DNA from: Candidatus Omnitrophota bacterium
GTDB lineage: Bacteria > Omnitrophota > Gorgyraeia > Zapsychrales > Zapsychraceae
Length of the DNA stretch: 64,000 nt
Direction: 5' to 3'
Assembly: GCA_020429915.1 (NCBI GenBank)
Contig: JAGQKV010000002.1
Span: 256,061-320,060, forward strand
In this document: piece by piece, positions 34,974 through 47,780 of the stretch
Position numbering within the stretch: position 1 is the stretch's first letter
Layout: each line of letters opens with the position of its first letter
Program-made: the position numbers and the translations under genes
The notes under the pieces: model-generated
Told to the model about the DNA's origin: nothing
The model's database searches: none
The model's input: the letters and a program-made list of their open reading frames with translations, nothing else

Positions 34974-36905
34974 TTAGATCTTCATGCCTTTTTTGCCGAG
35001 CACGAACACCGTCACCGCCAGGAAAACCAACTCGAACAAAACATAGGTGATCAGTCCCATGGCAATGCCGGAGGTGAATCCGTAGGAATGCAGTCCGACG
35101 CTGAGCAGGTTGACACCGAACCACGCCCACATCACAACAATGAGCGTAAGGATAGAGCCGACGGCGACACCCAACGGGTGTATAAGTTTGGCCAATCGCA
35201 TATGAAACAGTAATGCCACCCACAGCACGATCATCAGCGCGCCGTTCTCTTTGGGGTCCCATCCCCAAAAACGTCCCCATGACTGATCGGCCCATATCCC
35301 TCCCAGCGCGGTGCCGAGAAAGGTCGTGGTGAGTCCGAAACCGAGAATGCCCAAGGTATTGTTCAGCGTGGCATTCAGGCGCTTGGTGTTCTTGGAATCA
35401 AACAGGGCCTGCAGGACATAAATATGCCCCATGATCCCACCCACGCAGCATCCGGCATAACCGATGGTAATGGTAATCACGTGAGTACTCAGCCAGAAAT
35501 TCGAATCAAGTACGGCCACCAGGACTTTCAGGGTGTCACCGTCCCCACCGAATTTCGAGGCAATTGTCAAAAAGATCAGACCACTGACGCTGGCAATGGT
35601 CAGGCCCAGCGAGTTGCGGTTGACCCACTCCAGAATAAATCCGAGAATAACGGCTATCAGCCCGACGAAAATGAATGTCTCAAACAGATTGCTGACTGGC
35701 GGGCGGGCCATGATCAAAATGCGCAGGATTTGTGCGATCAGATGAGGAACGAAACCGGCCACAGCAAGGACCGCCGCCGTACGTGACAGCCAGGGTCGGG
35801 AAGAAAGCAGGCTGAACAACAGAAACATAAAGGCCAAACCGTAACCCAGCTTGGCCCACAAAAATCCGTTGAAGTCATTGTAAAACAATTCCAGTCCGAA
35901 CCGGTCGTATTGCTCCTTCTCTTTCGGTGACAGCCGCTTGCCGACAGAATCCAGATAGGCCTTGGCTGCAATATTAAACTGCAACTGCTCGCCGTTCCAG
36001 TAGTACACGGTCATGTTGCGAATGTGTGTAATCTCGTCGAAGTAAGCCTCCTGGTCCACGTTCAGCCGCATGATGTCCATCGGGCTCAACCAGCTTTCCT
36101 CTTCATATCTGACGGTGGGAATGACACCGAACGGCGCGTTGCCGTAATGTTCGGTCCAGAAATACATCGCGTTGATCAATCGCGCCACGGTCTTACCTTC
36201 TTCACTCCACTGCTGCACATCCCCGCCGCGCAGGACCATGGCCGCGGCTTCCAGTTTGTCGGTGACCACATACAGGTCATAAAAACTAAATTTGTCCCGG
36301 TCCGTGGCCAGCCCAAGTTTCTCTTTAATTTCCGGAGACGTCAAATCAAAGTCCGGATGCGGAAAGGCGTAGGCAAAGGCACCCGAAATACGGATGTAAT
36401 AGCCGAGGTTCGAGTAAACGCGCAGGATCTCCCGTTCGACGGCGGAAAGTTCTTTTTCATCGATGTCCATGAGGACCTCGGCCAACTCTTTTATCTTGTC
36501 GTAACCCGGTTCCAGCTGACGCCATGAGTAACGCCGGCGTTTTTCCGGATCCACTTTTATCGCCTCGAGGATTTCCGGATTATTAATCAGAAAGATCTGG
36601 TCGCGATAGGTCGTCCGGGGTGCGAAAATAAACCGGGCGAACCACTCCAGCGCGCTCTCCTTACCGTATGAACGACGCCCAGACAAACGCAGCAGGAAGC
36701 TCTTGGCAAAGGTTTCCATCGGTTTGATGCGACCTTCGTTCAGGACGGGAATCCGGGCAAAGGCTTCAAGGTCATTGACCTTGGTGGGCTTCAGCGTGTC
36801 CAGCGGACAAATGTTCTGGGCCGTGGCGTTCCCGGAATACAGCAGTCCGGTCAGGACGGTCAGAAGCAAAAATCCGTTGCCGAGATTTCGGAGTTTATTT
36901 CGCAT
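34974..36905 (-). CDS. ccsA: cytochrome c biogenesis protein CcsA/ResC (System II), long form with N-terminal periplasmic domain
   Basis: Trp-rich WWD motif (WGRFWGWDPKENGALMIVLW) and conserved His residues in the C-terminal TM bundle; start trimmed to MRNKLRNLG (signal peptide), overlapping the 3' end of ccsB. Confidence 0.8.
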   Translation of the reverse strand: MRNKLRNLGNGFLLLTVLTGLLYSGNATAQNICPLDTLKPTKVNDLEAFARIPVLNEGRIKPMETFAKSFLLRLSGRRSYGKESALEWFARFIFAPRTTYRDQIFLINNPEILEAIKVDPEKRRRYSWRQLEPGYDKIKELAEVLMDIDEKELSAVEREILRVYSNLGYYIRISGAFAYAFPHPDFDLTSPEIKEKLGLATDRDKFSFYDLYVVTDKLEAAAMVLRGGDVQQWSEEGKTVARLINAMYFWTEHYGNAPFGVIPTVRYEEESWLSPMDIMRLNVDQEAYFDEITHIRNMTVYYWNGEQLQFNIAAKAYLDSVGKRLSPKEKEQYDRFGLELFYNDFNGFLWAKLGYGLAFMFLLFSLLSSRPWLSRTAAVLAVAGFVPHLIAQILRILIMARPPVSNLFETFIFVGLIAVILGFILEWVNRNSLGLTIASVSGLIFLTIASKFGGDGDTLKVLVAVLDSNFWLSTHVITITIGYAGCCVGGIMGHIYVLQALFDSKNTKRLNATLNNTLGILGFGLTTTFLGTALGGIWADQSWGRFWGWDPKENGALMIVLWVALLFHMRLAKLIHPLGVAVGSILTLIVVMWAWFGVNLLSVGLHSYGFTSGIAMGLITYVLFELVFLAVTVFVLGKKGMKI

Positions 36906-38064
36906 GCGGCGCTCCCTGCCGTTGACGTTTGCGTGTGTTGACAGCGGCCATGGCAAAGTGAATGACCAAACCGGCGAACGTCACAAAGGTTGAAATGTAG
37001 GGAAGGACACGTCCGTGATTCCGGACCACGGCCAGCGTCGAACTTTCATTGCGGAACTGGTCGACGGAAAATGATGACTGATAAAAGGTGTACTCCCGGT
37101 GCCGCAACGGATTATTCATGGTGATCGGCTTCTCCCGCCACTGCCCCCCGGTGTCGACGGCAACCTTGCTTTTGAAGCTGCGTGCCGTTTGCGTCCCCGG
37201 ATGCTCTTCCTTGATGAATTCCACCAGCTTGAGCGTAAACGGCATCGGGTAGCGTTTCAAGCGCAGGCTCAAATGATACGTCTTCCCACCGGCCTCGATC
37301 GGCGTCGGAATTCTTTCGGCACCGTAGAGTATGACGTGTGAACTGCCTTCGGGTGTTGTGACCTCCAGAATAATTCCCGGGGTATTGCGTTCCGGTTCCT
37401 TTTCCAATTTGGCGGCCTCAATTTTTTGCACGCCCGAGGCATTCAGATAGCGGCTGTCTCCGTCATTGACCGCATAGGCGTTGGCATTGCGATGATACTC
37501 GAGTAACTTGATAATGATCCCGCTGTCCTCCATCGGCAGCGGCTGGTTGATCTTCAAACGGGCGACATCGACTCCGGTCACCGTGCGGATTACTTTACCG
37601 TCGGTCCGTTCGGGCGGGGCCTCCCAGATTGCCAGCTCCCAATCATGAAAAGCCGATGAAACATTCGTGGCCTGGCCTTCCTTGAGGGTGACATGACTTT
37701 CTTCCGCCGTATTCAGAATCACGTAGCCCGAAACAAAAAACATCAGCAGACCGATATGGATGACAAGGATACCAAAATTTTTCCAACTGTAGACAAAGCG
37801 AATCAGCATAACCGCCAGGACGTTGATAAACAGGATCCACATAACCAGTTGCCCGCCGGGAAAGGGGATGAAGCCCAGAACCAGGAAATAAAAGGAATGA
37901 AAGAATCTTTCCTGGGCGAGATACAGTCCGCTCTGGACCTGCGCGATTGTCCCCCACAGAGTAAGCAGGAACAGCAAGAAAATACCCAGACAGGTGATTC
38001 TCAGCGAAGCCAGGGCTTGAAGAAGTTTGATTTTGCGTAATTTTTGTCGGAACTTTGAAGTCAT
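36895..38064 (-). CDS. ccsB: cytochrome c biogenesis protein CcsB/ResB (Ccs1)
   Basis: 389 aa; N-terminal TM helices, large periplasmic domain, C-terminal TM helix; classic ResB layout immediately upstream of ccsA. Confidence 0.8.
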   Translation of the reverse strand: MTSKFRQKLRKIKLLQALASLRITCLGIFLLFLLTLWGTIAQVQSGLYLAQERFFHSFYFLVLGFIPFPGGQLVMWILFINVLAVMLIRFVYSWKNFGILVIHIGLLMFFVSGYVILNTAEESHVTLKEGQATNVSSAFHDWELAIWEAPPERTDGKVIRTVTGVDVARLKINQPLPMEDSGIIIKLLEYHRNANAYAVNDGDSRYLNASGVQKIEAAKLEKEPERNTPGIILEVTTPEGSSHVILYGAERIPTPIEAGGKTYHLSLRLKRYPMPFTLKLVEFIKEEHPGTQTARSFKSKVAVDTGGQWREKPITMNNPLRHREYTFYQSSFSVDQFRNESSTLAVVRNHGRVLPYISTFVTFAGLVIHFAMAAVNTRKRQRQGAPHAK

Positions 38065-38897
38065 TATTTTTCCGCTATGGAAAGGATCAGATCGCGAAAG
38101 TCAGGCAATCGGGCGCTGATGGCCGCCTTGCCTCCTGTCATCTTGACGAATATCTGTGACCGGCCGCGGTCGATGATCGCGGCGATCATGCTGGGTGCGT
38201 CGGCCGGCGCGTCCGATTGCAGGGTGGTCAGGTCGACCAGCGTCAAGCTCAGCCCGGACGCGGTCGTGAGTTGTTCCTGTTCGGCCAGAAAACGCTGTAG
38301 ATCTGCATCGTTGACTGAAATATTGACTTGCCTTAACCAACGACCGACATTGGCCTGAAGACCGCCCGCGCTCCCACCAAGACTGATGATCGAAGTCTCG
38401 GTCGGTCCGACGCCTCCCGTCGTGGTGAACGTCGCGAGCCGCAAACCGCTTCCCTTCTGTTCCGACCAGCCGGCCGGTGTTTGCCAGACTAACGGGGAAC
38501 GGTCGACCGACTGTTCCAGTTCGGGGGTGACCGGCATCGTGCTCATGCTCATACCGCTCCCTGAATTCGCCGAAGATTGAGCCTGCAGTCCGGCGTGAAT
38601 GGCGTCATCCGGCATGGTGCGGCCGGCCAGGCCCGCGTGGATCTCGTCCTGGGGCATGTCGCCGGATCCCATGAGCCCGGAATGAATGGCATCTTGCGGC
38701 ATTTTATTTGGATCCAGCCCGGCATGGATGGCGTCCTGGGGCATGGATTTGTCCCCGGAGCGCATGGCATGCGGAGGAATCTGCGAACGGTCGGATTCGA
38801 TAAAGATCTCTTCGTAGTGCCGTGTGAGGGTGGGCTGGCCGCATCCGGATACAAGAAAGACAGCGACCAATGCAATATTTCGTCGAAAATTAGTCAT
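38064..38897 (-). CDS. lipoprotein with four tandem MPQDAIHAGL-type repeats
   Basis: 277 aa; lipobox VFLVSGC; repeats MPQDAIHAGLDPNK/MPQDAIHSGLMGSGD/MPQDEIHAGLAGRT/MPDDAIHAGLQAQ; C-terminal ~150 aa Gly/Thr-rich domain; stop abuts ccsB start. Confidence 0.65.
   Translation of the reverse strand: MTNFRRNIALVAVFLVSGCGQPTLTRHYEEIFIESDRSQIPPHAMRSGDKSMPQDAIHAGLDPNKMPQDAIHSGLMGSGDMPQDEIHAGLAGRTMPDDAIHAGLQAQSSANSGSGMSMSTMPVTPELEQSVDRSPLVWQTPAGWSEQKGSGLRLATFTTTGGVGPTETSIISLGGSAGGLQANVGRWLRQVNISVNDADLQRFLAEQEQLTTASGLSLTLVDLTTLQSDAPADAPSMIAAIIDRGRSQIFVKMTGGKAAISARLPDFRDLILSIAEK
38560..38770 (-). repeat. tandem ~42-45 nt coding repeats (4x) encoding the MPQDAIHAGL motif
   Basis: plus-strand copies ...GCCCGCGTGGATCTCGTCCTGGGGCAT / GCCCGGAATGAATGGCATCTTGCGGCAT / GCCCGGCATGGATGGCGTCCTGGGGCAT...; diverged at synonymous sites. 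Confidence 0.6.
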
Positions 38898-38907
38898 GGA
38901 ATTAAAA

Positions 38908-40425
38908 TCAGTTGCCGGTGTGACAGTCCGTACAGCTCATGTCTTCCCACAATCCGTCGTCCTCAAACGGATGAGTAAAGCCGAGCCCCCGGGTATCCCG
39001 TTCAAGATTGTCGGGCGGTCCCTGCTCTATAATGGAGTGACAGACAGTACAGTCTTTGGTGATGACCGCTCCGTCACTGCTGGTGTGCTCTCCGTCGTGG
39101 CAGCGGAAACATCCGGGAGCCACGAGATGGCCGATATTGTCCGGGTAGGCATCCCACCGGGCTTTCATTTCAGGGAACATGCTATTCTGGAACATTTTTT
39201 GCACGGATGCAACTGCTTTCTTGACCTGAGGCTCCCGGGTGGCAAAATTATCTCCCAATTCCTCACGGTAATGGGTTGTCAACTCCGTGTCAATCGTCTC
39301 CAAGGCTTCCGTTTCGCTTGTGTATTCCTTGGATAGCAATTCCATGGCTTTGCTTTTGATGCCCGGCAATTCAGGGTCGATCTCATTTGAGGCCATGGCC
39401 TGATTGAGGAGGCGGCTGGGATAGGGATAACGGTGTGTGGGGCGGTTGTGGCAATCCATACAATCCATTTTATGAATAACTTCCGCGGGCGGAGGCGTAT
39501 CCTTCCATTTGGAATCTTCAGAGGTGTAAACGGTCTCTTTTCCGTCTTTGTCCACGCTCTTCACCCACGTGACTTCCTGCAGACGCTCATCCTCGGCGGC
39601 AAAATAAATATCGTTGTCAATGTACATGTGCTTGTGAATTCCGCTGCCTTTTTCCGGCGTGCCGCCGACGTGAACCAGCATCCGTAGCAACCAGCTCGGA
39701 TGTTCGCTGTCGTATGCCGTGAAATATGTCTTGTTCATCTCGACGGAGGTGTACGATTTGCCCGGCCAATGGCAACGTTCACAAGTCTCCTCAGCGGGGC
39801 GCAGATTATGGACAGGGGTAGCGATCGGTCGGGAATAGTCGCCTTTGATCGTATGGTACACCTGCCGAATCCCCGAGATCTTGGCGCGGACATACCACTC
39901 CGCCCCTTCTCCGATGTGGCACTCCACGCACTTGACCCGGGCATGCGGGGAATTGATGTAGGTGGTGTGTTCGGGTTTCATCACATCGTGGCACATCAGA
40001 CCGCAAAAGGCCACCGACTCGGTGTACTGATAAGCCTTGTACGTGCCGATGGCCGTCATGATCAGCAGGATACCTGTGCCGAGGATAAAGACAAATATCG
40101 CATTGCGGTGGGACGGAACACTCGGGTCGATCCTGATCGGCCCCGGTTTGGACGCGGATTTCCCTTTCAGAACAGCCCGGCGTTTCAACAAGGCGCCCAC
40201 CGGAATCAGAAGCAGGCCGATGATCAGGAAAACGGGCAGAATCGCGTAGGTCAGTATCCCCAGATAGAGATTCTGACCGTGCGAGAAGAATTCAAAGGCG
40301 AACATCAACAACTCGACGATAAAAAAGAAAATCGCAATCAGAACGCCGATATACGTCGTCCAGTTGTAGAAATAGACCGAGAACTTTTGTTTGGGTGTCG
40401 GCACGTCCGCCGGTTGCTTACTCAA
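38908..40425 (-). CDS. inner-membrane multiheme c-type cytochrome, ImcH-like (7 heme motifs)
   Basis: 505 aa; two N-terminal TM helices; heme sites CGLMCH(CX3CH), CVECH, CERCH, CMDCH, CFRCH, CTVCH, CTDCH. Confidence 0.75.
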   Translation of the reverse strand: MSKQPADVPTPKQKFSVYFYNWTTYIGVLIAIFFFIVELLMFAFEFFSHGQNLYLGILTYAILPVFLIIGLLLIPVGALLKRRAVLKGKSASKPGPIRIDPSVPSHRNAIFVFILGTGILLIMTAIGTYKAYQYTESVAFCGLMCHDVMKPEHTTYINSPHARVKCVECHIGEGAEWYVRAKISGIRQVYHTIKGDYSRPIATPVHNLRPAEETCERCHWPGKSYTSVEMNKTYFTAYDSEHPSWLLRMLVHVGGTPEKGSGIHKHMYIDNDIYFAAEDERLQEVTWVKSVDKDGKETVYTSEDSKWKDTPPPAEVIHKMDCMDCHNRPTHRYPYPSRLLNQAMASNEIDPELPGIKSKAMELLSKEYTSETEALETIDTELTTHYREELGDNFATREPQVKKAVASVQKMFQNSMFPEMKARWDAYPDNIGHLVAPGCFRCHDGEHTSSDGAVITKDCTVCHSIIEQGPPDNLERDTRGLGFTHPFEDDGLWEDMSCTDCHTGN

Positions 40426-40446
40426 ATACTGATCTCCCGCGGCTTA

Positions 40447-42489
40447 CTACCAGTGATAATTAAAATCAACCCAGGCCACATGCGCAATATAATTACCGAA
40501 CTCCGATACAGAGGTCGTATCGTAATGATAGTACGCATAGTGCGGCTCGACCGACCAGTTTTTGTCCCGGGGAGCGTAGCTCATCGTGACTTCCGCCGTG
40601 TAGTAATCGTTGGATGCGGCCAGCGGCAGAGAGGAACTGGTAAAGTCGTTAAAATTGTCGGTAAACGTCTTGGCCACCGCCGCGGTGATCGACCACTCGT
40701 CCGTCGGCACATAGCTGGTGCTTACCAGCAGGCTTTGTAAGTCCGCGCTGAAACCGGGCAACACCGCCGGACTGGAACTAGATGCTGCCGGCGTGGTCGT
40801 GTTGGCGTCCTGGTAGGTATAAGAACCGTTAACGAATAATTCCTTCATCACCTGAACGAAAATATCATAGGTGAAGGTGTGCGAGCGGAAACGGGTCTCA
40901 ACCGTGTCCGACAGGCCCTGTACGCGGGTCTTGTACTTTTTTCCATTGAACTGGTAGCGCACCGAACTTTGCAACCATTTTAATGGTTTCCAGGTTAATT
41001 TTGTAGTGAATTCATCACCGATAACTTGGAGGGAGTCCACGAATGCGGAATTAATGGCTCCTGACGTATCAACTTCATCATCATAGTCATTATTCTCGTA
41101 CTTTCTCCGAGCCTGGAAGGTGATGTTGTAGAAACGGGACGGAATAATTCGTGTTCCCAGGGTATATTGGGCCTTCTTGGTCTTGGTTTCCGTGACCCGC
41201 TGCCAGTTGAACAGGTAATCGGAATCGCGCTGGATTTCATTGAGGTCGTTGTTCATTTCCGTTAATTCGATATCTCCGTAGATCGAGGCCTTCTCGATAC
41301 CCGTGTACTGAACGGCGAAGTTCTGGCCGAACTGCCAGAGTTTTTCGCGGGACTGGCTGTAATCGGTATCGTCAATAATACCGTCGGGTGTAGCAGGAGA
41401 GTCATCTGAGGGGTAGACTGATTCACCCTTACGCTTCATTAGCTGATTTCTGGACTTGACGGTAAAGCGCAGCGTTTTACTCAATTCGTACATATAGTGT
41501 CCAACAACGGTGTGACTGTCTACTTCATTGTATGCTTGGGCATTTACGATTTGATGTGCAAAACTGAAGTTTGTTGGAACGCCAAATTCATCGGACTCTA
41601 CAATATTCTCCACTTCCTCATTTTCGAGACTTGCATAACGGTATGCCAAATTCAGGTAGGACGTGTCCTCTTCCCCGAACCAGCGGTTGCCTTGGAATGT
41701 GGTGGTAAAGATGTCACTCTCAGGCTTCTGGTTTTGAGCCCTTTTCTTGCGTTGCGATGCGGTTGCTGCGGTGGAGAGCCAACGTTCGTAACGGGTGTTA
41801 TCTGAATCGGTCCGTTCGTAGGTCTGCTCTGCACTGACATTAAACCCGGCGATTTCGGTTCCCCCGCGGACGCCGAAGATATCGACCTTTTCATCAATAC
41901 TTTGATAGGTCGGAGTTATTTCCTTTGCCACGGCGCCCTCCCGGGCCTCCGCCCAATTGAGCCGTGATTTTTCTCCGTCTTTCATATGGTGCTCATACCA
42001 AACGAGCAAAGTAAACTGATCTCCGATCTCCGGAGCGAAAGAGAAAAACAGTGACTGGATATCTAATTCCAAATCGCGGTTTAAATCATTGCTTTGGAGT
42101 GTGGAAAATGGATAAAAGAATCCACCCGAATCATCGTAATACTTGCGGAAGCTTTCGTATACAAATTGAAAAGCCCCGATACCGGGATTGGAATATTTAA
42201 CATTTGCTTCATGATCGTTGTCATCCGGAAGACTATGACCTTCAAAAGTAAGCATGCTGTCGTCTTCGTACTCCTTGCTGAAGAAGAGGTCTTTGATCCC
42301 TCCCGAGTAACCTTCGTCCATCCAGTGGTGGGCACGGAATTTCTTCTCGTCGCCTTTTACTTCCACATTCTTAGCTGGAGTAACGGTGATGGAAAACTCT
42401 TCGCCTTCCGCCGCCTCCGCCGGGGAATTCGGCAATACCGCGGCCCAGCCGATCAGTCCGAACAATAAGAGGAATGAAAATTTTCTCAT
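40447..42489 (-). CDS. large outer-membrane beta-barrel (porin-like) protein
   Basis: 680 aa; signal peptide (LLFGLIGWAAVLPNSPAEA); Tyr/Trp/Phe-rich alternating pattern throughout; C-terminus ...VAWVDFNYHW (aromatic terminal residue). Confidence 0.65.
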   Translation of the reverse strand: MRKFSFLLLFGLIGWAAVLPNSPAEAAEGEEFSITVTPAKNVEVKGDEKKFRAHHWMDEGYSGGIKDLFFSKEYEDDSMLTFEGHSLPDDNDHEANVKYSNPGIGAFQFVYESFRKYYDDSGGFFYPFSTLQSNDLNRDLELDIQSLFFSFAPEIGDQFTLLVWYEHHMKDGEKSRLNWAEAREGAVAKEITPTYQSIDEKVDIFGVRGGTEIAGFNVSAEQTYERTDSDNTRYERWLSTAATASQRKKRAQNQKPESDIFTTTFQGNRWFGEEDTSYLNLAYRYASLENEEVENIVESDEFGVPTNFSFAHQIVNAQAYNEVDSHTVVGHYMYELSKTLRFTVKSRNQLMKRKGESVYPSDDSPATPDGIIDDTDYSQSREKLWQFGQNFAVQYTGIEKASIYGDIELTEMNNDLNEIQRDSDYLFNWQRVTETKTKKAQYTLGTRIIPSRFYNITFQARRKYENNDYDDEVDTSGAINSAFVDSLQVIGDEFTTKLTWKPLKWLQSSVRYQFNGKKYKTRVQGLSDTVETRFRSHTFTYDIFVQVMKELFVNGSYTYQDANTTTPAASSSSPAVLPGFSADLQSLLVSTSYVPTDEWSITAAVAKTFTDNFNDFTSSSLPLAASNDYYTAEVTMSYAPRDKNWSVEPHYAYYHYDTTSVSEFGNYIAHVAWVDFNYHW

Positions 42490-42504
42490 GATGAGCTCCT
42501 TCTA

Positions 42505-43272
42505 CTAGTATCGTAAGTGGTCATCAAAATTTGAACCGTGGATAGCCGTATGGCAGCCTCCACTGAAGCACGTTCCCCGCGTCAGGCGGCCGCTGTGATT
42601 GGAATCCCCGATACTCGGAAAATTCATTTGGGTGTGGCAGCGCAAACAAAGGTTGTTATCACGGACTTTCAACATCTTGTCGTGAATCGAACCGTGCACC
42701 TTGTGACATGTGGTGCAGCCTTCACCGACGGCTTCGTGCTCAAAGACGAACGGACCGCGCTGTTCCTTGTGACATTGAAAACACTTGCCGTTGACCCCGT
42801 CGAGTGAGGTGCTGGTCCAGGGTTGGGCATCGGTGCCGTGGGAATTATGGCAGTCGGCACAGGCCATCTTTCCTTCCATGACCGGATGGCGGAACGGCAG
42901 GCGAAACTCGGCTTGCTTATCGAGGTGACAAGAAAAACAGAGTTCCGGATTGCGGCGCGGGTTGAAGATATTGTCTTTCCCGCCCCCTTCTTCAACGTGG
43001 ACGCTACCGGGCCCGTGGCACATTTCACAGCCTTGCGGCTCCCCACTGTCGTCTGCAAAGCTGATCCGTGAATGCGTCGATAGTTTGAATTCCCGTTCCT
43101 GGTCCTCATGGCAGGCAACACACATGTCGCTGCCGACGTACTCTGCTCCTTCCACTTCGCTGAAGAGTTTTTGCAACGAGGCCGCCTCAACGGCCGTCGA
43201 GGTCAGTGTGAGCGTTCCCAGTAAGCCGGCAACAGCGCACAACTGTATGAGGATGGGTTTAAAGTGGCTCAT
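42505..43272 (-). CDS. periplasmic multiheme c-type cytochrome (~8 hemes)
   Basis: Start trimmed to MSHFKPILIQLCAVAGLLG (signal peptide; the track ORF extends to 43305). Heme motifs: CVACH, CEMCH, CFSCH, CADCH, CFQCH, CTTCH, CLRCH plus CFSGGCH (CX4CH). Confidence 0.8.
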   Translation of the reverse strand: MSHFKPILIQLCAVAGLLGTLTLTSTAVEAASLQKLFSEVEGAEYVGSDMCVACHEDQEREFKLSTHSRISFADDSGEPQGCEMCHGPGSVHVEEGGGKDNIFNPRRNPELCFSCHLDKQAEFRLPFRHPVMEGKMACADCHNSHGTDAQPWTSTSLDGVNGKCFQCHKEQRGPFVFEHEAVGEGCTTCHKVHGSIHDKMLKVRDNNLCLRCHTQMNFPSIGDSNHSGRLTRGTCFSGGCHTAIHGSNFDDHLRY

Positions 43273-43308
43273 AAGGCGGCTCCTTTCTACGTTTCTCCTG
43301 GACAATAT

Positions 43309-43851
43309 TTATTCTCCTGATGCCTCTTGGGTGGCATTCAGGGCGTATTCCGGTGTCTTGTCGGCAAGCATCGTCTTGACTTCCTCCGTTGCAGCCGCGG
43401 TTTCGGTGACCATCGTCTGTGTTTGTTTGACCATTTCCTGTGTTTGAGAAACCATATCCTTGGTTTCTTCCACTAAATCGCGCGTTTCTTCGACCAGACG
43501 TGCCGTCTCCGCAGTTGTTTTTCCGGCGTTTTCAGCAGGAGTGAGAGCCGACATATCGTCTCCGGCCTCGGCGGCGGCTTCAAAATCTTCATGGCTGCCA
43601 ACTCCGCGGATCATTTCTTCGGTCAATGCCTCTCCATTCATCAATTCCTGCAACTTTTGTCCATAGGCATTGAGGTCATGTTTGCCGTCGTCTTTTTTCG
43701 GTTTTTCATCCACATGGCAGTAGCTACATTTCGGTTTGTAATCAGGATAGACTTCCCGGTACGCCTTGAGTTGTTTCACATTAGCCTGCGCCACGGGTAC
43801 GACGGCGGCGAATATGAACAGGACGGCGAAGGCTATTGATAATTTCTTCAT
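43309..43851 (-). CDS. monoheme cytochrome c with C-terminal Thr/Glu-rich repeat tail
   Basis: 180 aa; signal peptide; single CSYCH; C-terminal repeats (ETRDLVEETKDMVSQTQEMVKQTQTMVTE). Confidence 0.7.
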   Translation of the reverse strand: MKKLSIAFAVLFIFAAVVPVAQANVKQLKAYREVYPDYKPKCSYCHVDEKPKKDDGKHDLNAYGQKLQELMNGEALTEEMIRGVGSHEDFEAAAEAGDDMSALTPAENAGKTTAETARLVEETRDLVEETKDMVSQTQEMVKQTQTMVTETAAATEEVKTMLADKTPEYALNATQEASGE

Positions 43852-43861
43852 GGTATCTCCT

Positions 43862-44935
43862 TTATAGGGAAAGCACGGCTTTCCGTTGTTGACTGTCTTT
43901 TTCTTTGTTGTTCAAATATTGAGAACGCGTCGAGAGTTTGCGGTAAAACTCCCGAATCTTAGCGGTAATAATCTTCTCCACTTCATAAGCGGCGGCCAGC
44001 CGTTTGCGGACGTTATAGGCCACGACCCGGTCCAATTCATCGACACCGACCAATGTCACGCCCGGAATGTCTGCGGTCGCCGGATCGATGTTGCGTGGAA
44101 CGGATAAATCAATCAAGAGCAACCCCTTGTCGCGTTGGCGGCATGCCGTCTTAACAGTTTCCCTGTCAATGAGATAATATGGCGCGCTTGAAGAGCAAAT
44201 ACAGATATCCACGCGGGGCAGGACTTGAGCCAGGTCTTCCAACGGCAGGGTCGCGGCGCCGAAAGTTTCCGCCAGCTGCTCCCCTTTGCTGCGGGTACGA
44301 TTCATGACGTAAACCTTTTCGGCGCCCTTGCGCTTGAGGTCGCCGATCGCCAGGCGGCTCATTTTGCCGGCGCCGATAATCAGTACGGAACTATGTCTGA
44401 GCTCGGGAACGGTTTTCCGGATCAATTCGACGGCTGCCCAGCTGACGGAAACACCACCGCGACCGATCTCCGTTTGATTTCGGGCGAGTTTTCCGGTCCG
44501 GATTGTGAGATTAAATAATATGTTCAAAAAGGGCCCCGTCATCCGGTGTGTGCGTGCAAGTTCGATCGCGGCCTTGACTTGTCCTAGAATTTCCTTTTCC
44601 CCGATAATCAGTGAGTCGAGACCGGCGGCAACCCGTAGCAGGTGGCGGATCGCTTTTTCACCGGAATAGGCATAAAAACAATTCAAATCGGTTTCGGGAT
44701 CGTGGACGCCCTTAACGTGGCACAGCAGTTCTAAAAGGAGGTGCGGTTGGTTTACGGTGAGTACGGCGTAGATTTCCGTGCGGTTACAGGTGGAAATGAT
44801 GATGGCTTCGTTGACGCTCGGGCAAGCCTGGAACTCGTCTAAGAGCATGTCTTTGTCAGCTGGATGAAGATAGTATTTTTCACGGATGTCCACCGGGCAT
44901 GTCCGATGACTGATCCCCATGCATATGACGTACAT
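43862..44935 (-). CDS. hemA: glutamyl-tRNA reductase
   Basis: Start trimmed to MYVICMGISHRTCPVDIREKYY (GGGGAG Shine-Dalgarno site); catalytic Cys region, NADPH-binding GAGKMS Rossmann motif, C-terminal dimerisation helix. Confidence 0.85.
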   Translation of the reverse strand: MYVICMGISHRTCPVDIREKYYLHPADKDMLLDEFQACPSVNEAIIISTCNRTEIYAVLTVNQPHLLLELLCHVKGVHDPETDLNCFYAYSGEKAIRHLLRVAAGLDSLIIGEKEILGQVKAAIELARTHRMTGPFLNILFNLTIRTGKLARNQTEIGRGGVSVSWAAVELIRKTVPELRHSSVLIIGAGKMSRLAIGDLKRKGAEKVYVMNRTRSKGEQLAETFGAATLPLEDLAQVLPRVDICICSSSAPYYLIDRETVKTACRQRDKGLLLIDLSVPRNIDPATADIPGVTLVGVDELDRVVAYNVRKRLAAAYEVEKIITAKIREFYRKLSTRSQYLNNKEKDSQQRKAVLSL

Positions 44936-45047
44936 GGTATACTCCCCCGAGTTTGTTAACTTTGGCTTCATTATAAGCATGAAAATGCTATAATTAAAAT
45001 TATATTTTCTTAAATTAACGATTAAATTTTCTAATACCTAAGGAACG

Positions 45048-45963: not shown

Positions 45964-46695
45964 CTACGCGCCAGGCGGGTCCGGAATGCGCTTCATGAAA
46001 TTTACGAAACGTGCTTCCACAGTGTGAATGTCCTGACCGAAGTAATTTTCAATGGCCGGCCGCCATTCCCGCTTCCGCAGGGAACCGTAAAAATTCCAAA
46101 AGGGACCTTCCCCGTGTTCTTGCATGGCGAACGCCACAAAGGCGGCGGCCAAATTTCCTTCCTCATCGCTGCTGTAATGATCGAGAAAAATCTGATCAAG
46201 CCGCCACATCGACGGGGCTGCGCGTTTGCCTAATTGTACCAGCGGCACCTGAACCGCCCCACTGCCCGCGCGCACCGTTCTGACCTCATGCACCCGGCAG
46301 ACGCCTTCCTCAAAACGCAACGGGACCTGCGGATTCAGCCGATGAAGAAAAATATGCAGGAATTCATGCATTGAAGTCAACCGGAATTCCCGGTCATACC
46401 GAAAATGCACCTCACGCGCGGCGGCACGGGCGTAGCCCAACTTTTCGAGATGCTCGTGCAGGTACACCTTCACTTTTCCCTCAAGGCGGACCTGCGGCAA
46501 TAATCGTTCCGCCGCCCGAATGGAATCTTCGTAGTCCGCCACCACTTCTGCTAGATTCTTTTCGGCGAATGAATCTTTCTTGTAATGAATGATCAGCCGG
46601 TCGGTCTCGACGCTTTGCCATCCGCCGTTCCCGCAACCGCATAACAGAAAAATTCCGAGCGGAAGCAACACCAGGCGCACGCGAAGGCGGATCAT
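45964..46695 (-). CDS. lipoprotein with HExxH motif (paralog of 57546..58277)
   Basis: Start trimmed to MIRLRVRLVLLPLGIFLLCGCGNG (lipobox); HEFLH motif; ~35% identity to ORF 57546..58277 (TSMHEFLHIFLHRLNPQVP vs TSVHEFLFVMYSPLNPQVP). Confidence 0.55.
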   Translation of the reverse strand: MIRLRVRLVLLPLGIFLLCGCGNGGWQSVETDRLIIHYKKDSFAEKNLAEVVADYEDSIRAAERLLPQVRLEGKVKVYLHEHLEKLGYARAAAREVHFRYDREFRLTSMHEFLHIFLHRLNPQVPLRFEEGVCRVHEVRTVRAGSGAVQVPLVQLGKRAAPSMWRLDQIFLDHYSSDEEGNLAAAFVAFAMQEHGEGPFWNFYGSLRKREWRPAIENYFGQDIHTVEARFVNFMKRIPDPPGA

Positions 46696-47207
46696 GGTTG
46701 AGGAGTTTTTGGGGGTACGGCAAACCAGAACCGCTGATAATTCGGGAAGGTCAAAGTCCCGCGCAGGTCCGGCGCATCCCTGAAGATACACAGGTCGTAA
46801 TTGTAGTCTTTTTTATCCGTGACGCGGATCAATTGGCAGGGTTTTAAGGCCATCGGTTTCATCTTTTCATACTCGACAATGACCGCTTCTGCGAAGATGC
46901 GCTCGATATCAGCGTCCATCAGCAAGCGGGCCTCGAAAGGAATGAAGACTTCGGCCACGGACCCGGGTTTAATATAATCGGCGAACGGACGCCCCCATTC
47001 TTCCTGCTGTTCGGGATAGCTGTCATCTTTTCCCTGACGTTTGACCTTTTTGCCGCTTAAGATCTGCAGAAAGGCGTTCTCCATTTCCGCCTCGGTTTGG
47101 CGCATGATCGGCAACTCGGCCGCGTGAAGGTTTTCAACAGTCACGGTGAAATCAGCCAATACAAAAAGGATGATTAAAAACGAACGTGCGAAACAGATTG
47201 TCGGCAT
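46692..47207 (-). CDS. hypothetical secreted protein
   Basis: 171 aa; signal peptide; 4-nt overlap with the downstream lipoprotein gene. Confidence 0.45.
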   Translation of the reverse strand: MPTICFARSFLIILFVLADFTVTVENLHAAELPIMRQTEAEMENAFLQILSGKKVKRQGKDDSYPEQQEEWGRPFADYIKPGSVAEVFIPFEARLLMDADIERIFAEAVIVEYEKMKPMALKPCQLIRVTDKKDYNYDLCIFRDAPDLRGTLTFPNYQRFWFAVPPKTPQP

Positions 47208-47210
47208 AGT

Positions 47211-47780
47211 TTACTCCCTCATGAGTTGCTGTATCAAGCGTTCAATGGCGAACCAGTCGAAACTGCCGAACCGCTGAAAACGGATACGGCCTTCTTTGTC
47301 GATGATGACAATTTCCGGGGTCCCCCGGATTCCGTAGGCTTGCATGGTTAATGGGGTCGGATTCCCCGGTGCGTGACGGTCGACCGCTACCGGATGCCGG
47401 ATCTTCTTCTCCGAAACGAACTGCAGCAGCCGCTGCGGAGTTTGGACATCATGCCCTTCAAACACCGAGTGGATACTGATCAACGCGATTTCCGGGTTGC
47501 CGCGAAACATTTTTTCCCACTTGATCATTAGCGGAATGGAAAAACGGTTGCATCCCGGGCACCACAGTTGGAAAAATTCGACAACGACAACTCTCCCCCG
47601 CAATTGCTGCAACGTGATCGGCTCGGTATTGATCCAGCCGCTGACTTGCCATTCCGGGGCCGTCTCCGGAGCCGAACTGTCCTCGGCAACTGCGGATTGC
47701 ACAGTCAGCGCGAGAGTCAGGACCGAAAACAGGCAAAAATATCGAAATGCGGACATAAGGCTATTATGCCATGCCGACAT
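47211..47780 (-). CDS. TlpA/ResA-like periplasmic thiol:disulfide oxidoreductase (thioredoxin fold)
   Basis: 189 aa; signal peptide; WCPGC active site. Confidence 0.75.
   Translation of the reverse strand: MSAWHNSLMSAFRYFCLFSVLTLALTVQSAVAEDSSAPETAPEWQVSGWINTEPITLQQLRGRVVVVEFFQLWCPGCNRFSIPLMIKWEKMFRGNPEIALISIHSVFEGHDVQTPQRLLQFVSEKKIRHPVAVDRHAPGNPTPLTMQAYGIRGTPEIVIIDKEGRIRFQRFGSFDWFAIERLIQQLMRE

Follow-up and report, generated by a model that had tools for sequence, protein, structure and literature searches.

A Mog1/PsbP-like lipoprotein with histidine repeats, encoded beside System II cytochrome c synthase genes, as a probable helper of haem attachment

Does a lipoprotein gene that stands between a ccsB-like gene and a group of multihaem cytochrome genes serve the electron conduit on one side or the haem-attachment machine on the other? 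The question arises from a 64,000-nucleotide stretch of DNA of a Candidatus Omnitrophota bacterium (the window), on which an earlier note had assigned this lipoprotein to the "outer-membrane cytochrome slot" of the conduit. The position itself is as claimed there: the ResB/CcsB-like gene occupies 36895..38064 (minus strand) and the NapC/NirT-type multihaem gene 38908-40425. System II (CcsBA) occurs in many bacteria and in chloroplasts, and in the textbook view it is minimal, with only thiol-redox helpers beside CcsB and CcsA. Work is under way to use it as a model of haem trafficking and as an antibacterial target, and what its periplasmic domains do is left open by recent CcsBA structures (PMC13645880).

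The lipoprotein gene (38064..38897, minus strand) is an open reading frame of 277 aa that encodes a His-repeat tether followed by a Mog1/PsbP-like domain. Two open reading frames on the opposite strand, 38577-38978 and 38077-38358, are unsupported, whereas the minus-strand frame has thousands of homologs. At the N-terminus, MTNFRRNIALVAVFLVSGC, a positively charged beginning precedes a hydrophobic core and the lipobox V-S-G-C, whose Cys is Cys19; this bears out the N-terminal lipobox reported previously. As read from the sequence, the signal peptide and lipobox cover aa 1-19 (...LVSG-C19; 38841..38897, minus strand), and MTNFRRNIALVAVFLVSG-C19 conforms to the bacterial lipoprotein pattern of a signal peptide ending in [LVI][ASTVI][GAS]C. 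Cys19 is almost invariant in the alignment of homologs (alignment A1), and a lipobox-like motif is present in 158 of 196 family representatives. In 109 of these 158 (69%), Glu or Asp follows the lipid Cys; in the window protein, Gly does. An acidic residue at this place in most members would fit retention in the inner membrane by the E. coli rule.

Close to the anchor lies a second conserved element, R26-H-Y-E-E-I-F-I-E (38796..38822, minus strand), in which R26 and E30 are nearly invariant among the aligned homologs. The form R-x-[YFQM]-x-E occurs at most 16 aa from the Cys in 133 of the 158 lipobox-bearing representatives, with variants such as "YR[VI]PKE" and "RMEITE" in other phyla, and the AlphaFold2 (AF2) model gives this segment a pLDDT of about 80 despite its coil conformation. 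The lipid-anchor Cys is the sole Cys of the protein, and CXXCH, CXXCK and CX3-4CH motifs each number zero; with CXXCH absent, the lipoprotein is ruled out as a cytochrome. A thioredoxin-like role was likewise rejected, as the sequence has no CXXC and Pfam gave no thioredoxin match.

The C-terminal half, previously described as Gly/Thr-rich, is not merely that: in the structure prediction, residues ~135-277 (38067..38495, minus strand) form a confidently folded alpha/beta domain (AF2 pLDDT 89-98). This alpha/beta sandwich has the characteristics of the Mog1/PsbP-like superfamily, and Foldseek searches against the PDB retrieved Tsi3, CyanoP/PsbP, Apa, MTC28, LpqN, DcrB, Mog1 and EagT6 (E 5e-5 to 4e-2). 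The invariant residues of the domain are W138, P141, W144, R153, L173, G175, N183, R186, W187, Q190, F250, K252, G255 and S273, and there is no His, Met, Tyr or Cys among them that could be an axial haem ligand. The window protein has no Pfam match at E≤0.1, the PsbP, DUF1795 and Lpp-LpqN families included, and nothing above the NCBIfam cut-off; 10 diverse members belong to no Pfam or NCBIfam family, the best match being Lpp-LpqN at E=0.2 for one member; and a PDB sequence profile search gave nothing significant for the family. Homologs are numerous: 60 were found, 59 of them at E≤1e-19, and a profile search returned 7,524 cluster representatives (50%-identity clusters) at E≤1e-3. All named members are annotated as hypothetical. 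The family is thus large, unnamed and unmodelled in Pfam and NCBIfam.

Among proteins of this fold, two groups are instructive. CyanoP, itself a lipoprotein, sits at the outer surface of a membrane complex. PsbP and CyanoP share the alpha/beta sandwich with the window protein (2xb3, 2vu4, 1v2b and others; Foldseek E 3e-4 to 6e-3) and offer a model of an extrinsic subunit that docks on periplasmic loops, although neither Pfam nor the PDB profile search revealed a relation at the sequence level. Moreover, the partner of PsbP is photosystem II and it has no His-repeat tether, whereas the partner genes of the lipoprotein are those of CcsB and CcsA. LpqN and DcrB (6e5d, 6e8a) share the fold and are likewise envelope proteins with a lipid anchor, and LpqN has been reported to interact as an accessory protein with the inner-membrane transporters MmpL3 and MmpL11 (PMC7458404). 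However, they show no significant sequence similarity to the lipoprotein and belong with other transporters, substrates and phyla.

Downstream, the lipoprotein stop codon and the start of ccsB share a TAATG sequence, in which the ATG of ResB/CcsB overlaps the TAA stop by one base. The ResB/CcsB-like product matches PF05140 (E=9e-15) and aligns to the CcsBA structures 7S9Y and 25vk; its invariant H103 lines up with a His in the CcsB part of these structures. It is followed by a long CcsA (34974..36905, minus strand; PF01578, E=4e-23), which has 643 aa when counted from the ATG at 36905, according to the gene call in locus L001. This protein combines an N-terminal periplasmic domain with a WWD haem-handling domain, WGRFWGWDPKENGAL is invariant in the CcsA alignment, and both 25vk (CcsBA of B. 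thetaiotaomicron) and 7S9Y align with it across the CcsA part, the alignment being weak in the N-terminal periplasmic region. By their WWD motif, conserved His and alignment to CcsBA structures, the two products look like a complete synthase.

This gene order is widely conserved. ResB/CcsB and then the long CcsA lie directly downstream of the lipoprotein in all ortholog loci having downstream DNA (L001-L055, L067, L068), including, among 46 loci from species-level genomes (L010-L055), each one that has such DNA, and the same order was found at six sites from exact-protein look-ups. It recurs in the cultured Prosthecobacter fluviatilis and in a Hydrogenedentes MAG. Altogether, the order lipoprotein-ccsB-ccsA is kept in at least seven phyla, independently of the upstream genes, and in most cases the gap between lipoprotein and ResB measures -4, -1 or +1 to +7 nt. 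In the reverse test, for which metagenome loci were selected by a CcsA alignment alone, the ResB alignment being too divergent, the lipoprotein was found directly upstream of ResB in 46 of the 60 evaluable loci. The lipoprotein gene is therefore both co-located and co-oriented with ccsB/resB and ccsA, and these invariant System II neighbours tie it genetically to cytochrome c biology. Because 14 of the 60 long-CcsA loci have no lipoprotein and, to our knowledge, the well-studied System II organisms work without it, the protein is not essential to synthase chemistry. No natural fusion of the lipoprotein to CcsB or CcsA was seen, and in Pirellula a more distant paralog is found by itself, with unrelated housekeeping genes around it.

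The tether carries the feature that first drew attention to this gene, an array of four MP(Q/D)D(A/E)IH(A/S)GL units (38586..38744, minus strand). The sequence confirms four near-identical 10-aa cores with a single His each, at periods of 14, 15 and 14 aa: MPQDAIHAGL (aa 52-61, 38715-38744), MPQDAIHSGL (aa 66-75, 38673-38702), MPQDEIHAGL (aa 81-90, 38628-38657) and MPDDAIHAGL (aa 95-104, 38586-38615), all on the minus strand. The array is far beyond chance, with 12 non-overlapping pairs of 10-mers at 8/10 or more identities in the lipoprotein and none in 2,000 shuffles. The previous view of a constrained peptide encoded by drifted DNA also holds, since pairwise comparison of the cores gave 27 synonymous against 9 non-synonymous codon differences, the pairs not being independent, and Tandem Repeats Finder reported no repeat at the DNA level. 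In the AF2 model the repeat region is disordered (pLDDT 50-66) and not docked on the C-terminal domain. At its end the tether has a Met-rich stretch, GMSMSTMP (M-x-M-x-x-M; 38532..38555, minus strand; read from the sequence).

Absence of the repeats in orthologs had been named beforehand as evidence against the earlier reading, and here the outcome was divided. Orthologs at 45-73% identity keep two to four copies of the same His motif; across the family, however, the copy number ranges from 0 to 5, and the motif is lacking in 73 of the 196 sampled representatives and in 38 of the 46 orthologs selected by CcsA (it is present in the other 8). Orthologs from verrucomicrobia and planctomycetes lack it. 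Judging from this distribution, the His motif is a clade-specific addition and not a core feature of the family, and, being missing from most orthologs, it cannot carry the core function. Nearby multihaem genes are restricted to the same clade as the motif, so that shared ancestry confounds any comparison of His-motif count with multihaem neighbours. The repeats may possibly bind haem or a metal.

If the lipoprotein belonged to the conduit, it would replace an outer-membrane cytochrome of the MtrC/OmcB type in a porin-multihaem assembly, for example by means of non-covalently bound haem. The local context favours this idea: in the window and in close relatives, the gene follows a set encoding a 1-haem protein, a 7-haem protein, a Cys-free probable beta-barrel of 680 aa and a membrane cytochrome with 6-7 haems, which resembles a porin-cytochrome cluster and has no lipoprotein cytochrome among its genes. 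MtrC and OmcB, too, are lipoproteins, and the window gene lies near a probable porin and multihaem cytochromes. Unlike them, the window protein lacks both CXXCH and a cytochrome domain, and the synteny of its gene is with ccsBA rather than with the conduit. Any gene with CXXCH was found upstream in only 9 of the 44 evaluable loci; the constant neighbours are ccsB/resB and ccsA. The lipoprotein stays beside ResB/CcsA where conduit genes are absent (L007, L009, L016, L067, L068), and in L002, where Rieske/cytochrome b genes separate the conduit genes from it, it is still next to ResB. Nor do the orthologs of verrucomicrobia and planctomycetes have the His motif. Since ResB and CcsA are the constant neighbours and cytochrome genes precede the lipoprotein at so few loci, the "outer-membrane cytochrome slot" is unsupported; synteny has largely refuted a place in the conduit, which we consider most improbable.

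Three other readings accept the gene order and differ in what they make of it. The PsbP-like domain, the repeats or both might bind unfolded apocytochrome and not haem, and pass multihaem substrates to CcsBA or keep them there, as a System II counterpart of CcmI/CcmH. This draws on the same ccsB-ccsA synteny as the favoured explanation, and a motif repeated one to five times would suit the multivalent binding of substrates with many CXXCH sites, which are encoded adjacently in this clade; Mog1/PsbP-like proteins such as EagT6 and LpqN are, in addition, mainly protein- or ligand-binding adaptors (PMC7458404). However, most orthologs lack the motif, and thiol chemistry is not available to a protein whose sole Cys is its lipid anchor; we find such a chaperone somewhat unlikely. 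The tether could instead buffer metals: its four D-x-x-H units with Met, together with MSMSTM, would bind Cu(I)/Cu(II) or Zn beside the synthase and keep metals from poisoning haem attachment and reduced CXXCH thiols. The Mets motifs of periplasmic copper proteins are the comparison here; the Met/His motifs of the tether are of this type, and relatives have stretches such as DPHAGMDMSAM and PMNMPMNMPM. In support of such a need, c-type cytochrome assembly is a documented target of periplasmic copper toxicity (PMC4600104). Against it, most orthologs have ordinary Pro/Ala/Ser tethers with no His motif and a Met enrichment of only about twofold, no copper-resistance genes lie nearby, and the conservation of Ile before and Gly-Leu after the His points to a recognised peptide shape and not just a metal ligand; we regard metal buffering as unlikely. 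Lastly, the lipoprotein might serve the periplasm in some general way unconnected with cytochrome maturation, in which case the gene order would be a legacy of operon structure and the repeats would be low-complexity sequence that expanded neutrally; we find this quite unlikely. The stand-alone Pirellula paralog, the long-CcsA loci devoid of the gene and the freely varying repeat number agree with it, whereas the order and tight spacing kept over so many phyla while other neighbours change, and the synonymous drift around a conserved peptide, which speaks against neutrality of the repeats, do not.

We therefore favour, with reasonable but not strong confidence, a lipid-anchored periplasmic protein that works with the downstream System II synthase, made of a split CcsB/ResB and a long CcsA. 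It is the synteny that supports a putative role in cytochrome c maturation, and a haem or apocytochrome chaperone role would be compatible with the System II gene neighbours. The lipoprotein is probably an undescribed helper in haem attachment rather than a component of the electron conduit encoded beside it. That it is a functional partner of CcsBA seems likely to us; that it is a physical subunit of the synthase could go either way. Under the favoured model, the PsbP-like domain, and probably also the anchor-adjacent motif, would make the lipoprotein an extrinsic subunit by docking on CcsB/CcsA at their periplasmic domains, after the example of PsbP on photosystem II and of LpqN, of the same fold, with MmpL transporters. 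There its task would be to stabilise the synthase, or to regulate it, on the periplasmic side, at which haem exits the membrane and meets unfolded apocytochrome. In the clade of the window, the tether has gained one to five copies of M-P-x-D-x-I-H-A-G-L, which we prefer to read as weak, multivalent ligand-bearing motifs held near the WWD haem site; they might transiently coordinate haem iron or hold apocytochrome segments while the multihaem substrates encoded nearby mature. Ligation of haem by the His motifs is, for its part, a minor though tangible possibility.

Known maturation factors differ from such a helper. CcmE of System I is a small membrane-anchored periplasmic protein with a His on a flexible segment near the haem machinery. 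The likeness of the lipoprotein to it is one of concept only: CcmE folds as an OB domain, has one conserved H-x-x-x-Y, forms a covalent haem adduct and works in System I, none of which was found in the lipoprotein, whose fold is PsbP-like and whose motif is P-x-D-x-I-H-A-G-L. System II has in fact been described as working without the need for a separate haem chaperone (PMC13645880). ResA/CcsX and CcdA resemble the lipoprotein in being encoded with or near ccsB/ccsA and in acting on the periplasmic side, but they are thiol-disulfide proteins with CXXC, whereas the lipoprotein has no Cys beyond its anchor. In the window, a thioredoxin-like gene with WCPGC is found at 47211-47780.

The literature searched describes no such System II subunit. 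A thousands-strong unnamed family fixed upstream of ccsB-ccsA in many phyla is a candidate for a missing accessory component. At its most far-reaching, the proposal would be that System II has a third dedicated subunit in Omnitrophota, Verrucomicrobiota, Planctomycetota and several other phyla, a PsbP-fold lipoprotein docking on the periplasmic face of CcsBA, and that in the multihaem-rich Omnitrophota-like clade its His/Met mini-motifs ligate haem or substrate at the WWD exit, as a functional counterpart of CcmE or CcmI of System I; taken as a whole, this is speculative and rather improbable. For annotation, the conserved order gives grounds to name a family of many "hypothetical lipoproteins", and is a caution against counting the gene among those of the neighbouring extracellular-electron-transfer cluster.

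The His motif travels with the Mog1/PsbP-like domain. In two-module proteins that use the form DPHAG[LM]DMS, the motif precedes each module, and the CcsA of locus L042 has a DPHAG...His-rich stretch at its own periplasmic N-terminus. This N-terminus and an unrelated ABC1 kinase were the only occurrences outside the family in the six frames of the window and 6,712 ORFs of the fetched loci. The repeat region alone (64 aa), used as a query, gave 4 candidates and 0 matches, a result that is little informative given a probable word-index limit. Across the family, tethers are Pro/Ala/Ser-rich, with about twice as much Met and several times as much His as the domain. Periplasmic Met/His copper-binding proteins of the CopC, PcoE, CusF and PCuAC types are recognised by their family domain or by a defined Cu motif such as H(M)X10MX21HXM. 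Pfam gave no copper-protein match for the lipoprotein, and D-x-x-H and M-x-M-x-x-M in the tether resemble copper motifs in general form only. The Met/His composition of the tether fits copper binding as well as haem binding.

The lipoprotein gene (38064-38897, minus strand) is an ORF of 277 aa, and the N-terminus of its product, MTNFRRNIALVAVFLVSG-C19, is a signal peptide with a terminal lipobox. Four 10-residue cores follow, MPQDAIHAGL (aa 52), MPQDAIHSGL (aa 66), MPQDEIHAGL (aa 81), and MPDDAIHAGL (aa 95), spaced with periods of 14, 15, and 14 aa. Twelve pairs of ten-mers in the protein are identical at 8 or more of 10 positions versus none in 2,000 shuffles, which is far beyond chance, and the reading of the ORF in the earlier note, with a lipobox and four near-identical His-bearing repeats, was therefore correct. 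The same is true of the drift in DNA under a conserved peptide: the copies differ by 27 synonymous versus 9 non-synonymous codon changes (six pairwise comparisons, mutually dependent), and orthologs at 45-73% identity retain the same motif in two to four copies. Tandem Repeats Finder reported no repeat in this DNA.

In an AlphaFold2 model of the lipoprotein, computed from an input alignment of 46 sequences, a helical signal peptide is followed by a coil of fairly high confidence (residues ~21-30), a disordered low-confidence stretch that holds the repeats (residues ~31-125, pLDDT 50-66), and an alpha/beta domain (residues ~135-277). What had been described as a Gly/Thr-rich segment after the repeats is thus instead predicted to be a folded domain (pLDDT 89-98). 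A Foldseek comparison of the model with the PDB assigns this domain to the Mog1/PsbP-like fold class, with matches to Tsi3, cyanobacterial and plant PsbP, Apa, MTC28, LpqN, DcrB, Mog1, and EagT6; eight matches had E<=1e-3, and target-normalised TM-scores reached 0.63. At the sequence level, no kinship to Pfam, NCBIfam, or PDB entries was detectable. The lipid-anchor Cys is conserved family-wide, and an anchor-adjacent motif, R26-x-Y-x-E30, occurs in 133 of 158 lipobox-bearing representatives. Fourteen residues of the domain are invariant (W138, P141, W144, R153, L173, G175, N183, R186, W187, Q190, F250, K252, G255, and S273), none of which is a typical axial haem ligand.

Genomic context is the decisive evidence on the role of this protein. 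Its TAA stop shares one base with the ATG of ResB/CcsB (TAATG; 36895-38064, minus strand), and a long CcsA follows (34974-36905, minus strand). Each locus of the distant homologs retrieved by exact-protein look-ups has the order lipoprotein, ResB, CcsA. Similarly, at the ortholog loci L010-L055, taken from 57 species-representative genomes, ResB and CcsA are directly downstream on the same strand wherever downstream DNA is present, with intergenic gaps mostly of -4, -1, or +1 to +7 nt; the Prosthecobacter and Hydrogenedentes loci have the same arrangement. In a reverse test, 80 metagenome loci were chosen by CcsA alone; 60 of them extended far enough upstream to be evaluated, and in 46 of these (77%) the lipoprotein was directly upstream of ResB. 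Unrelated genes were found there in the remaining 14 (L074, L078, L089-L092, L096, L098, L110, L121, L128, L132, L141, and L142). ResB is much shorter (~270-300 aa) in the lipoprotein-less loci L089, L090, L092, and L110, and L132 contains an apparent fused ResB-CcsA ORF.

Upstream of the lipoprotein, the homologous loci L004 and L005 carry the same conduit genes as the window, L002 carries Rieske/cytochrome b and other multihaem genes, L007 carries YceI with cytochromes absent, and L009 encodes a giant ABC1-kinase protein. Only 9 of 44 evaluable loci have a CXXCH-containing gene on the same strand in the 4 kb of upstream DNA, so that homologs do not always neighbour multihaem cytochromes, as the earlier note had proposed to check. 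Its assignment of the lipoprotein to the outer-membrane cytochrome slot of the conduit is unsupported, since the protein has no haem-attachment motif and the neighbours with which its gene stays are ccsBA and not the conduit genes. In Prosthecobacter fluviatilis, a cultured carrier of the lipoprotein, both genes upstream of it (L067:3662-6892) have a PSCyt1 (planctomycete cytochrome c) domain, and a HamA/haem-oxygenase-like gene is nearby.

A word-indexed search yielded 60 homologs, in which every source-named member was "hypothetical" and no Pfam domain was found. With sequences clustered at 50% identity, an exhaustive profile search retrieved 7,524 cluster representatives at E<=1e-3 (1,093 at E<=1e-30), certain of them with two to five matching stretches. 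The hosts include Omnitrophota, Planctomycetota, Verrucomicrobiota, Spirochaetota, Aminicenantes, Hydrogenedentes, and one Saprospiraceae MAG. The whole module of tether and PsbP-like domain occurs in two or three tandem copies in the homologs P0015, P0025, P0027, P0060, P0143, P0173, L045:5284-6900, and L055:3981-5726; these proteins reach 550-600 aa, and they likewise precede ResB and CcsA. Eleven weak matches in Pirellula and other Planctomycetota MAGs (L056-L066, e.g., L056:5770-6354) represent a more distant paralog, which is secreted with a plain signal peptide, lacks a lipobox, and retains N-x-x-RW-x-GQ and F-[VI]-KMTGP. In Pirellula it stands alone among unrelated housekeeping genes (quinolinate phosphoribosyltransferase, PPK2, a phosphotransferase, and isocitrate dehydrogenase). 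Neither the fold nor the pathway is new; the novelty is a very large and unnamed family of lipoproteins with a fixed position upstream of ccsB-ccsA, no description of which was found in the databases and literature searched.

Judging from their sequences, the downstream partners form a genuine synthase. In CcsA, the WGRFWGWDPKENGAL (WWD) segment is invariant and His residues are conserved; the protein can be aligned with the CcsBA structures that have been solved, 7S9Y (H. hepaticus) and 25vk (B. thetaiotaomicron), and the alignment includes its N-terminal periplasmic domain, though weakly. ResB matches the CcsB part of both structures, and its invariant H103 is in a region aligning with a His of that part. 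Because both proteins align to parts of solved CcsBA, and because the periplasmic domain formed by the first ~340 residues of CcsA aligns weakly to the middle of fused 25vk, the pair looks like a split version of CcsBA. The CcsA ORF was listed as 34974-36956, with a TTG start at 36956; starting from the ATG at 36905 yields a product of 643 aa, as called in the near-identical contig L001, and makes an 11-nt overlap with the end of ResB. In the recent paper on the B. thetaiotaomicron structure, "lipoprotein" and "accessory" have 0 occurrences, and the authors stress that what the periplasmic domains do is unresolved (PMC13645880). The other literature searched likewise yielded no account of a PsbP-like CcsBA partner.

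Synteny and predicted fold together indicate that the lipoprotein probably works with the CcsB/CcsA synthase as an accessory partner, which makes it a candidate third component of System II. It would be made together with the synthase and anchored by its lipid on the periplasmic side, possibly at the inner membrane, given that 69% of family members have an acidic residue next to the lipid Cys on its C-terminal side; the acidic-residue rule for inner-membrane retention is established only in E. coli. By analogy, the PsbP-like domain may serve as a module docking on the synthase, as PsbP does on photosystem II. A further precedent is LpqN, a lipoprotein of the same fold, with MmpL transporters (PMC7458404). 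This role is directly testable with existing assays.

The favoured reading of the repeats is that they bear ligands and would act as weak, multivalent motifs close to where haem exits, binding either haem iron or the apocytochrome; that the His motifs themselves ligate haem seems rather unlikely. Tethers are mostly Pro/Ala/Ser-rich, with Met about twofold and His several-fold enriched versus the domain. This Met/His content resembles periplasmic copper motifs, which makes buffering of copper or another metal a possible explanation and the main rival, and copper toxicity in the periplasm is known to act on the assembly of cytochrome c (PMC4600104). A simple spacer is argued against by two-module proteins with the DPHAG[LM]DMS variant, which have their own motif ahead of each module, and by a marine MAG (L042:4445-6541) in which CcsA opens after the signal peptide with a His-rich DPHAG stretch, EPKDPHAGHNHPPGQHGAHEHEQ, the single clear case among 133 CcsA ORFs; both tie the motif to module function. 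Strict conservation at the Pro, Asp, Ile, His, Ala, Gly, and Leu positions of the motif suggests that the peptide is recognised by its shape. Family members carry between 0 and 5 copies of it. The motif in any flavour (MPxDxIH, DPH, or PGH) is missing from 73 of 196 sampled representatives, from verrucomicrobial orthologs and from most planctomycete ones, and only 8 of the 46 orthologs picked independently via CcsA have it, so that absence of the repeats in orthologs, raised in the earlier note as contrary evidence, is partly borne out. The His motif is thus a clade-specific elaboration of Omnitrophota-like lineages, in which nearby multihaem genes are also common.

In the window, a porin-cytochrome-cluster-like set (38908-43851, minus strand), also present in L004, L005, and L010, comprises a membrane cytochrome with a NapC/NirT domain, six CXXCH and one CX3-4CH (38908-40425), a 680-aa protein that has a signal peptide, lacks Cys and belongs to no Pfam family, ends in NYHW, and is a probable outer-membrane beta-barrel (40447-42489), a 7-haem cytochrome with seven CXXCH (42505-43305), and a 1-haem protein (43309-43851), all on the minus strand; an outer-membrane lipoprotein cytochrome is absent from the set. 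The gene for HemA (glutamyl-tRNA reductase; 43862-44980, minus strand) heads a tightly packed string with gaps of 3-21 nt through to ccsA, and in other loci hemA is just downstream of ccsA (hemA was noted in the window, L004, L005, L026, L036, and L037). This placement suggests that haem synthesis and cytochrome maturation are co-expressed. About 8 kb upstream of the lipoprotein gene, a 189-aa secreted thioredoxin-like protein with AhpC-TSA/Redoxin matches and WCPGC (47211-47780, minus strand) is a candidate reductase of apocytochrome thiols, of the ResA/CcsX type. The adjoining ORFs of 171, 238, and 275 aa have no Pfam family; the last of these (45964-46791, minus strand; 243 aa in L001) contains an internal lipobox-like LLCGC and 11 His.
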